Source of the DNA: Paludibacter sp.
GTDB lineage: Bacteria; Bacteroidota; Bacteroidia; Bacteroidales; Paludibacteraceae
Direction: 5' to 3'
NCBI GenBank assembly: GCA_034927635.1
Contig: JAYFPP010000215.1
Coordinates: 6,868-70,867 of the forward strand
DNA length: 64,000 nucleotides
A model generated the notes under the pieces. It saw only the letters and a list, made by a program, of their open reading frames with translations, was not told the origin of the DNA and did no database searches. This document shows positions 48,114 through 48,345 of the stretch, piece by piece. The number at the start of each line of letters is the position of its first letter. Position 1 is the stretch's first letter. The position numbers and the translations under genes were made by a program.

Positions 48114-48247
48114 GCGAAAATAGCTCAGTTGCCGGAAAACAGACACGAAGGTGCTCTGCCAACTGAGTTTAAGTCAGAAAAGATTATTCAATGCGAAAAT
48201 AGCTCAGTTGCCAAGAAATAGACACGAAAAGTGCTCTACCAACTGAG
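48114..48247 (+). repeat. Two mosaic tRNA-derived units (48114-48167 and 48193-48247)
   Basis: Each is tRNA-Gly nt 1-18 (GCGAAAATAGCTCAGTTG), then AGACACGAA as in tRNA-Leu, then GTGCTCT(G/A)CCAACTGAG, the reverse complement of the tRNA-Gly D-arm. Confidence 0.85.
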
Positions 48248-48272
48248 ATACGATTAGCGAATAATTAAAACT

Positions 48273-48345
48273 GCGAAAATAGCTCAGTTGGTAGAGCACG
48301 ACCTTGCCAAGGTCGGGGTCGCGGGTTCGAGTCCCGTTTTTCGCT
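48273..48345 (+). tRNA. tRNA-Gly (GCC)
   Basis: Cloverleaf: acceptor GCGAAAA/TTTTCGC, D-arm GCTC..GAGC, anticodon loop TTGCCAA, T-loop GTTCGA. Confidence 0.97.

Follow-up and report, generated by a model that had tools for sequence, protein, structure and literature searches.

The tRNA-Gly leader and its two repeat units

The DNA analyzed here is a stretch of 64,000 nucleotides (64 kb) from a Paludibacter sp. genome (assembly GCA_034927635.1), which we call the window, and the element in question is a pair of tandem repeat units that stand between a promoter and a tRNA-Gly gene and are built from pieces of that same tRNA. The tRNA-Gly(GCC) gene (48273-48346, plus strand) and a tRNA-Leu(TAA) gene (48366-48449, plus strand, D-arm region 48385-48395) were both placed by ARAGORN and Rfam, and the former is a genuine tRNA that scores 70.8 bits with the Rfam tRNA model. 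Upstream, at 48059-48072 on the plus strand, a Bacteroidetes-type promoter box TATATTTG is followed by the conserved start region CAGCCG. The combined pattern TANNTTTGCANYCG matches only here in the window, where 0.06 matches would be expected, and TAnnTTTG is what we take to be the Bacteroidetes -7 element. At related loci the box TATATTTG plus GCA(C/G)CCGCTTTGA is likewise found ahead of units. An initial annotation of this DNA, made from the letters alone, had placed the units downstream of a promoter, and the unique box bears this out. From its position, the box probably drives the units, tRNA-Gly and a co-transcribed tRNA-Leu as one transcription unit. No terminator was found between the units and tRNA-Gly at this locus, and a terminator-like hairpin with a T-run (48450-48490, plus strand) downstream of tRNA-Leu closes the Gly-Leu operon.

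The window has exactly three copies of the 18-mer GCGAAAATAGCTCAGTTG, which is nt 1-18 of tRNA-Gly. They start at 48114, 48193 and 48273, with spacings of 79 and 80 nt; in shuffled sequence no copy is expected. Tandem Repeats Finder (TRF) reports a period-80 array at 48111-48290. The 17-mer GTGCTCTACCAACTGAG, also expected in no shuffle, is the reverse complement of 48283-48299, that is, of tRNA-Gly nt 11-27, which is the target of the antisense segments of both units. It is exact in unit 2 (48231-48247), where it can be extended to 48250 (20 nt at 95%), and carries one A-to-G change in unit 1 (48151-48167). The starts, the spacing, the tRNA-derived opening and the antisense had all been described in the initial annotation, and the 18-mer search, TRF and the complementarity reproduce them.

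Both units are of the type that we call class A, as seen from the 18-mer, the 17-mer, TRF and the hairpin. Unit 1 (48114-48192, plus strand) consists of tRNA-Gly nt 1-18 (48114-48131), a CC (48132-48133), the purine tract GGAAAA (48134-48139), CAGACACGAAG (48140-48150), the antisense of tRNA nt 27-11 (48151-48167) and a spacer (48168-48192). Unit 2 (48193-48272, plus strand) has the same order, with tRNA-Gly nt 1-18 at 48193-48210, CC at 48211-48212, the purine tract AAGAAA at 48213-48218, TAGACACGAAAA at 48219-48230, the exact antisense of nt 27-11 at 48231-48247 and a spacer at 48251-48272. A simple decayed tandem tRNA copy would show only collinear, same-strand similarity; here nt 1-18 are collinear, whereas nt 11-27 appear in perfect reverse complement in the 3' half of the core. 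The Rfam tRNA model does not score the units, either in the window or at ten related loci.

Two mosaic features had also been pointed out. The 11-mer AGACACGAAGG is indeed common to unit 1 (48141-48151) and the tRNA-Leu D-arm region (48385-48395), and TTGCCAAG, the D-loop TTG fused to the anticodon-loop CCAAG, is present in unit 2. The motif ATAGACACG... is also found in units beside tRNA-Gly(TCC), far from any tRNA-Leu, and judged by sequence it can equally be read as a decayed sense copy of tRNA-Gly TAGAGCAC that would pair with the antisense. The units had been expected to fold on themselves, and on the plus strand both hairpins fold better than shuffles (unit 1, -20.2 kcal/mol, z = -2.66; unit 2, -16.1 kcal/mol, z = -3.79), with worse folding of the minus strand (z = -1.2 and -1.9).

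The unit family in the same genome and in other Bacteroidales

The window's genome has 36 tRNA genes, and units are found at three of the five tRNA-Gly genes (two GCC and one TCC) and at none of the 31 others. On contig C156 a near-identical single unit, with 96% identity to unit 1, precedes the second tRNA-Gly(GCC) gene, and on C145 one tRNA-Gly(TCC) gene is preceded by a unit whose 5' part and antisense are both TCC-specific. The linker motif and the junction appear in this genome only in the four units, all upstream of tRNA-Gly. This Gly-specificity holds for the window's genome; the other-family searches used tRNA-Gly sequences only. [quoted passage not shown]

Units were also found in many independent assemblies of Paludibacter and Candidatus (Ca.) Enterocola. 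A strict pattern scan of 185,579 species genomes gave 41 stretches, nearly all from Paludibacter, Paludibacteraceae, Ca. Enterocola or unclassified Bacteroidales; the pattern fixes the outer stem, so that conservation of this stem is partly due to the selection of units. Class-agnostic scans at the family and order levels relax this constraint. In all these searches counts ignore phylogeny, and genomes other than the window's own were examined as loci only. Class A units precede tRNA-Gly(GCC), (TCC) and (CCC) genes in Paludibacter and Ca. Enterocola. They have a period of 74-82 nt. Each begins with tRNA nt 1-18 and continues with an invariant CC and some six purines; a short segment of variable sequence, in which (A)TAGACAC is usually present, leads to the antisense of nt 27-11 and an A/T-rich spacer. 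A second type, class B, has a period of 85-116 nt and consists of tRNA nt 1-36 (the last three being the anticodon GCC), CC, purines and an (A)T(A/G)GACAC-type segment, followed by the antisense GACCTTGGCAAGG, which is directed at the anticodon loop and its 3' stem.

In the genus Paludibacter, 52 of the 102 species genomes have class A or class B units, which is a lower bound, as diverged copies exist (e.g. in G019); reversed-pattern controls gave no match. Class A is found in 22 of the 102 and class B in 31, and both occur together only in G041 (OY782858.1), where a single leader on its one chromosome reads A, A, B. One to five tandem units lie between the promoter (or the preceding tRNA) and the tRNA-Gly gene, and the same class can be found at two or three separate tRNA-Gly loci of a genome. 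Units linked to TCC genes are placed within Thr-Tyr-Gly-Thr operons, in the internal spacer between Tyr and Gly. Ca. Enterocola has single units, which occupy the same kinds of place as in Paludibacter, namely promoter-unit-Gly(GCC)-Leu and Thr-Tyr-unit-Gly(TCC)-Thr, and one locus reads unit-Gly-unit-Gly-Leu. The genomic contexts of units vary between loci.

At the family level, the class-agnostic scan of 301 genomes detected units in 4 of 33 genera. Scans of 301 and 251 Bacteroidales genomes at the order level, with tRNA-Gly queries, gave mostly true tandem tRNA-Gly genes, together with a class B unit in another family (L090) and several pseudo-units. Those at L091 (four in tandem, genome G562) and L026 (G035) consist of tRNA nt 1-25 and lack the T-arm, and their anticodon arm is deleted or exchanged for a GC hairpin. 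The units ahead of tRNA-Gly(CCC) at L092 (G561) and L145 (G572) have a GC hairpin in place of nt 23-32, and the 5' part of their D-arm pairs with CCAAGCTGAG; G561 and G572 share this layout and differ in their hairpin sequences. As far as tRNA-Gly queries show, the family does not extend beyond the tRNA-Gly genes of Paludibacteraceae and of a few Bacteroidales outside that group. A scan of 47000-49500 with Rfam cmscan at E <= 10 found only the two tRNAs and chance-level matches, ten related loci at E <= 0.1 gave only their genuine tRNAs, and a literature search found no description of tRNA-Gly leader repeats in Bacteroidetes and brought up only RtT and 3'ETS-leuZ as analogues; the family is previously undescribed and has no Rfam match.

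Some details of these loci can be added. The GC hairpin of the mini-cloverleaf pseudo-units reads ATCCGCC-TGA-GGCGGAT, and the replacements of nt 23-32 are TCCGCC..GGCGGA or CCCCGAG..CTCGGG, with both hairpin types in one G572 array. At L042, L050, L066, L049, L013, L011 and L053 there are remnants of 18-31 nt in which the tRNA-Gly 5' end is fused to the end of a spacer (e.g. GCGAAAATAGCTCAGTTTCATTAAT); these are apparently internally deleted units. Contigs of metagenome-assembled genomes (MAGs) end inside unit arrays at L031 (G011:C18), L052, L060 and L071, which shows that the repeats break short-read assemblies and that each copy number has to be read as a minimum.

Conservation and tracking of the neighboring tRNA

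Within Paludibacter and in comparison with Ca. Enterocola, identity is 0.99-1.00 over nt 1-20 of the units and 0.90-0.95 over the antisense, and falls to 0.60-0.67 in the linker and 0.56-0.63 in the spacer. The core, measured from the first base of the unit to the last base of its 3' arm, keeps a length of 52-58 nt, and the antisense always spans tRNA nt 11-27 or 11-28 and never pairs with G10. Among the six bases after TTGCC, 295 of 306 are A or G (96%), and T makes up 1.3% as against 33% in the spacers. The unpaired CC and this purine-only tract are two features that are kept and are not derived from tRNA matching.

The units also follow the tRNA that they precede. Where tRNA position 27 is C the unit reads GTG (12/15), and where it is T the unit reads ATG (32/36), for GCC and TCC tRNAs and in both genera. 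The TCC units carry TCTATC, which matches A19, and the GCC units keep TCTACC, even though in the hairpins of 26 of 32 GCC units this C has a mismatch. In class B the antisense follows its own tRNA as GGTCGGG, GGTTAG or GGTTGGG, and at L084 the unit matches the adjacent first tRNA-Gly and not the second. Co-evolution of the unit family with the adjacent tRNA is therefore well supported by these sequence comparisons.

Predicted folding

The structural evidence is uneven. RNAalifold predicted only the invariant outer stem of 7-8 bp, with a covariation term of about 0. In the proposed inner helix TAGA(CAC)/(GTG)cTCTA, 76% of cells are paired and three pairs are changed on both sides, with a covariation score that was reached by 22 of 500 shuffles. 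Compensatory changes are seen in window unit 1 (CGGA/TCTG, where the C156 paralogue has a C-A mismatch) and in G295 (AGCAG/CTGCT). A further one, G10 to A (L003), lengthens the hairpin of the TCC unit in the window's genome. The helix arms are CTCAGTTG/CAACTGAG in class A and CCTTGCC/GGCAAGG in class B, around a homologous linker. In our opinion the strongest structural argument, at the level of sequence comparison, is this finding of homologous linkers between two unrelated pairs of complementary arms; the helix swap between the classes, together with the stem swap between G561 and G572, is suggestive as well.

When unit 2 is folded together with the tRNA, the minimum free energy (MFE) is -58.7 kcal/mol, compared with -45.6 kcal/mol when the two are folded apart. 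In this clamped fold the GCGAAAA of the unit pairs with the tRNA 3' strand, a 17-bp helix forms between the antisense and nt 11-27, and the anticodon and T arms are normal. Alternative folds were predicted in which any one GCGAAAA copy out of three can pair with the 3' acceptor strand of tRNA-Gly. For 51 of the 52 pairs of unit and tRNA in class A, and for all 9 in class B, the clamped structure has the MFE, with a gain over the separate folds of 12.7 +/- 2.5 kcal/mol in class A and a mean of 11.4 kcal/mol in class B; with the 3' part of the unit reversed, the gain is 3.8 and 6.1 kcal/mol, respectively. The model thus predicts that pairing between the antisense and the tRNA beats the unit's own hairpin. 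Such a fold also accounts for the need that a leader element would have for an exact acceptor 5' strand in addition to the antisense.

Origin of the unit

The unit is made up of an exact nt 1-18, a CC that replaces G19/T20, a purine tract, a small loop AGACACGRA, the antisense of nt 27-11 and an A/T-rich spacer. In some Ca. Enterocola variants the CC is followed by A-AGAGCAT... or TAGAG..., and the sense (A)GAGCAT/TAGAG faces ATGCTCTA; in the window units TAGACAC faces GTGcTCTA. The Ca. Enterocola variants, which retain this sense sequence, show the purine tract to be a decayed sense copy of the 3' half of the D-stem. It follows from the same variants that the ancestral unit was a fold-back, which comprised tRNA nt 1-27 with G19/T20 changed to CC, the loop AGACACGG and the antisense of nt 27-11. 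Sense and antisense copies around a short loop are what an inverted duplication by fold-back (template switching) leaves behind, and comparison of the sequences shows each unit to be a fold-back derivative of the first third of tRNA-Gly; this speaks to the origin of the units and not to their present role. Opposite UGCUCU the purine tract would keep partial pairing in several registers if G-U pairs are counted, which would be a property at the RNA level.

An internal complementarity is also found in tRNA-Gly(TCC/CCC) genes (e.g. L034, 494-567), between the 5' part of the D-arm (CTCAGTTGG/A) and nt 35-44 (CCAAGCTGAG), and CCAAGCTGAG is one base off the class A 3' arm CCAACTGAG. It is possible that this complementarity was a seed for fold-back events.

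A proposed cis-acting leader and its alternatives

One of the questions raised by these units is whether they do anything for the tRNA that they precede. The reading that we favor, tentatively and with somewhat less than even confidence, is that they form a cis-acting decoy and antisense leader that would gate the folding and processing of tRNA-Gly. As they lie between the promoter (or the preceding tRNA) and the tRNA-Gly gene, they are expected to be transcribed within the tRNA precursor. A cis-antisense switch had already been offered in the initial annotation; it agrees with the position inside the operon, with the antisense complementarity across species and isoacceptors and with the predicted pairing, and it is as a fit to these that the suggestion stands.

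The proposed mechanism is as follows. In the nascent precursor each unit would first fold on itself, and the sense copy would act as a decoy that caps the antisense. This decoy would be deliberately imperfect, with the CC mismatch or bulge and a decayed inner arm, which would make the genuine tRNA body the better partner. The leader could then switch to a clamped precursor, in which the antisense would hold nt 11-27 of the real tRNA (in class B, the anticodon arm) in a helix of 13-18 bp and the acceptor stem would be closed by a leader GCGAAAA copy and the tRNA 3' strand instead of the genuine 5' strand. In this conformer the elbow between the D-loop and the T-loop could not form and RNase P would cut at the wrong place. 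The balance between the self-capped and the clamped state might set the output of mature tRNA-Gly relative to the co-transcribed tRNA-Leu, or to tRNA-Thr and tRNA-Tyr, and repeat number, which is easily altered by slippage, might tune this balance.

The clamp itself raises a difficulty. Its MFE follows by construction from the complementarity and for this reason is a prediction that does not count as evidence for a function, and according to the model a dominant clamp would poison every tRNA-Gly(GCC) gene of the window's genome. Since each of these GCC genes has units, the clamp must for the most part be prevented or undone in the cell, presumably by the self-capping hairpin, which is the first to form during transcription.

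Further points against a cis-acting gate are at the same time the case for its most serious competitor, a non-adaptive by-product, which we consider quite possible. Here one or a few template-switch (fold-back) duplications of the tRNA-Gly 5' region would have given a sense-loop-antisense block, replication slippage and unequal crossing-over between the 18-nt repeats would resize the arrays, gene conversion would hold the sense copy, and quasi-palindrome correction the inverted copy, identical to the tRNA, and the units would be transcribed, be removed with the leader and have no role. About half of the Paludibacter species have no units. Copy number and class turn over fast at orthologous loci (A in G001, four class B in G006, and A, A, B in G041). 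Tandem copies are identical, those at the edges have diverged more, and there are remnants of 25-31 nt, all of which resembles ordinary repeat dynamics. Formal covariation is weak, as seen above from the outer stem alone being called by RNAalifold and from the shuffles of the inner helix. The conserved parts are exactly those that match the tRNA, as concerted evolution predicts, and both their conservation and their tracking of the tRNA could be explained, instead of by selection, by gene conversion for the direct part and by quasi-palindrome template switching for the inverted part. Full tandem tRNA-Gly genes, which are common in Bacteroidales, would supply the raw material.

Other observations fit a by-product poorly and, from the sequences compared, would count for the cis-acting gate. 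In the window's genome only tRNA-Gly is affected, although all tRNA genes share the same mutational opportunities. One class is found at two or three tRNA-Gly loci of a genome, and between species classes A and B all but exclude each other. Direct repeats of 18 nt that lie about 60 nt apart should be deleted easily, and yet the units are retained across genera. Conservation extends to features that tRNA matching does not produce, namely the CC without a partner, the tract made of purines only and a core of constant length, and the boundaries of the antisense are fixed. The mismatch opposite G10 has never been corrected to C in more than 50 units, which quasi-palindrome correction should do. 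Other families hold pseudo-units that have the same layout and different stem sequences.

A role in trans is improbable. The spacers would be cut and the units freed as small hairpin RNAs with a tRNA-like 5' tail, which might act as a sponge that takes up 5' fragments of tRNA-Gly or tRNA-Gly that is unfolded or unmodified, titrate a protein that binds tRNA-Gly by mimicking its ligand, or be a decoy for a nuclease directed at tRNA-Gly. The decoy for anti-tRNA nucleases or integrases that the initial annotation had listed has no observation in its favor. The hairpins are predicted to be stable, and the antisense of 16-18 nt is long enough to capture a 5' tRNA half. A mimic could rely on the GlyRS (glycyl-tRNA synthetase) identity elements G1-C2-G3 and on the GCC-like TTGCCAA in the unit, a GCC anticodon-loop heptamer that is found at the junction even in TCC-linked units. 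RNAs from tRNA-operon spacers with roles of their own provide a precedent, such as RtT (PMC4986893) and 3'ETS-leuZ. Against this, there is no linked partner gene and the contexts vary between loci, the units are not phage-borne, and the match of the L084 unit to its adjacent tRNA instead of the genome-wide consensus fits a role in cis or a process at the DNA level better.

We regard it as very improbable that the units are attachment-site duplications or scars of mobile elements that integrate at this tRNA locus. The initial annotation had listed scars at an integration hotspot, and a serine recombinase gene (48414-50033, minus strand) does overlap the 3' end of tRNA-Leu. This idea has to be given up on several grounds. 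Integrases usually duplicate the 3' part of a tRNA, whereas these repeats carry the tRNA-Gly 5' end (nt 1-18), and the copies are 79-80 nt apart with no cargo between them. Many loci that have units, in over 50 genomes, lack a recombinase, and units also stand within Thr-Tyr-Gly-Thr operons; the recombinase of the window lies beyond tRNA-Leu, and the inverted 17-mer is left unexplained. An assembly artefact, suggested by the fact that this genome is a 289-contig MAG and that such arrays break contigs (C18 of G011 ends inside one), has a negligible chance, given the near-identical unit at the second locus on C156 and dozens of independent assemblies, including the single-contig chromosomes G006, G041 and G333.

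Several other candidates were tried and rejected. Phage origin was dismissed after a search of viral contigs, in which only one of 52 pattern matches was unit-like and lay at a contig end, probably in host flank. An attenuator with a terminator does not apply, as there is none between the units and the tRNA and the T-runs after TCC units follow weak A/T stems. For a leader peptide, the mini-frame ATG-CGA-AAA-TAG (AAT followed by GCGAAAATAG) is not conserved, as other loci have ATT, TTT or ACT before the GCG, and no open reading frame (ORF) of at least 40 aa was found on either strand across the units. A boxA-like antitermination site (TGCTCT...) was dropped because class B lacks it, and a group I or archaeal-type intron in the 80-nt insert because the downstream tRNA is intact on its own.

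Extended to the order, the cis-acting gate becomes a broader and rather doubtful proposal: Bacteroidales tRNA-Gly genes would carry an unrecognised class of self-templated cis regulators, made of a 5'-strand decoy plus an antisense clamp, as in classes A and B, or, in other families, of disarmed mini-cloverleaves. These would be rivals of the genuine 5' part for the body and the 3' strand of the tRNA and would so gate both RNase P processing and precursor folding, tunable by repeat copy number, and the gate might perhaps be opened by free tRNA-Gly 5' fragments as a feedback after tRNA damage. Bacterial tRNA supply is usually ascribed to promoter control and generic processing enzymes. If the proposal is true, it adds a new control layer to tRNA biogenesis that is specific for one amino acid and tunable by repeat number. 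If the units are non-adaptive, they are an unusually clean natural case of inverted and direct repeats that are kept in step with an essential gene, and useful for the study of template switching. In practice, the arrays break assemblies, and tRNA and Rfam annotation misses the units.

Comparison with known systems

Each of the known systems that we considered shares one aspect with the units and fails on defining features. In E. coli, repeats of 178 bp in the tyrT operon yield RtT RNA (PMC4986893, with reference to Bosl & Kersten, 1991); they are released in tRNA processing and have unequal recombination as their probable origin. Like the units here, with their period of 79/80 nt and 18 nt of tRNA-Gly, they are tandem repeats in a tRNA operon's transcript, each with a piece of the adjacent tRNA. 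RtT lies downstream of its tRNA and carries the tRNA 3' end, whereas the units lie upstream with a 5' fragment; moreover, RtT has no antisense segment and is not Gly-specific. The RtT covariance model was not matched by the units at E <= 10 (47000-49500) or by the ten related loci at E <= 0.1.

The sponge RNA 3'ETS-leuZ, from the 3' external transcribed spacer of glyW-cysT-leuZ, is similarly a by-product of a tRNA precursor that acts by base pairing. It pairs with Hfq-dependent small RNAs and not with its own tRNA, is not built from a tRNA, is present in a single copy and belongs to Enterobacteria. T-boxes resemble the units as leader RNA that pairs with a specific tRNA, and class B units present GGC opposite the GCC anticodon. 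They regulate genes for aminoacyl-tRNA synthetases and amino acids, recognize the tRNA by 3 nt at the anticodon and by its NCCA end, and act by switching a terminator. Their marks are a specifier codon in Stem I, the T-box sequence and a terminator that competes with an antiterminator. The units, in contrast, pair over 13-18 nt, lie upstream of the tRNA gene itself and have no terminator, and class A has no Gly codon in its loop; no T-box match was given by Rfam in 47000-49500.

Decayed tandem tRNA copies and quasi-palindrome duplications share with the units a sense copy that starts at nt 1 after the same upstream bases, arrays that are resized, and concerted evolution with the live gene. The units differ from them in the 17-nt inverted copy with fixed boundaries (nt 11-27), in the invariant CC and the purine tract that are kept across genera and isoacceptors, and in their restriction to tRNA-Gly.

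Neighboring genes and other repeats

The leader contains further short repeats. At 48081-48113 (plus strand) TRF detected the mini-repeats ATAGCGAATAGCTAATAGCTAATAGCGAAGAAT, with a period of 7 and 3.7 copies. They are short and degenerate versions of GCGAA(AA)TAGCT, the 5' end of the tRNA. The ATAGCTA/TAGCGAA motif of these mini-repeats recurs in the C156 leader and in those of L042, L050 and L066 from three other Paludibacter genomes.

On the downstream side, the serine recombinase (539 aa) is a large one with Resolvase, Recombinase and zinc-ribbon domains (Pfam). The 3' end of its gene overlaps the terminator-like hairpin at 48450-48490 as well as the 3' part of tRNA-Leu(TAA), and it marks an element integrated at tRNA-Leu. 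It is followed by a phage GP30.3-like (NADAR) gene (50500-50994). Upstream of the promoter, a gene at 44669-47788 (minus strand) encodes a Peptidase_C25 protein of 1039 aa that ends in a C-terminal sorting domain for type IX secretion. Several other Paludibacter genomes have a small, conserved ORF (MLNEKIGNNAGL...) upstream of the Gly(GCC)-Leu(TAA) locus instead, so that the left flank of the window locus differs from theirs.

The heptamer palindromes mentioned above, (RAGTTGA)n ... (TCAACTY)n, occur genome-wide with about 100 arms, and one of them lies at about 37921-37948 in the window (C257:44788-44815). They had no Rfam model match at threshold and look like a REP-like family. Several of them adjoin tRNA genes, in the Thr/Tyr/Gly spacers on C45 and C145 and upstream of Gly-CCC on C189, C206 and C31.

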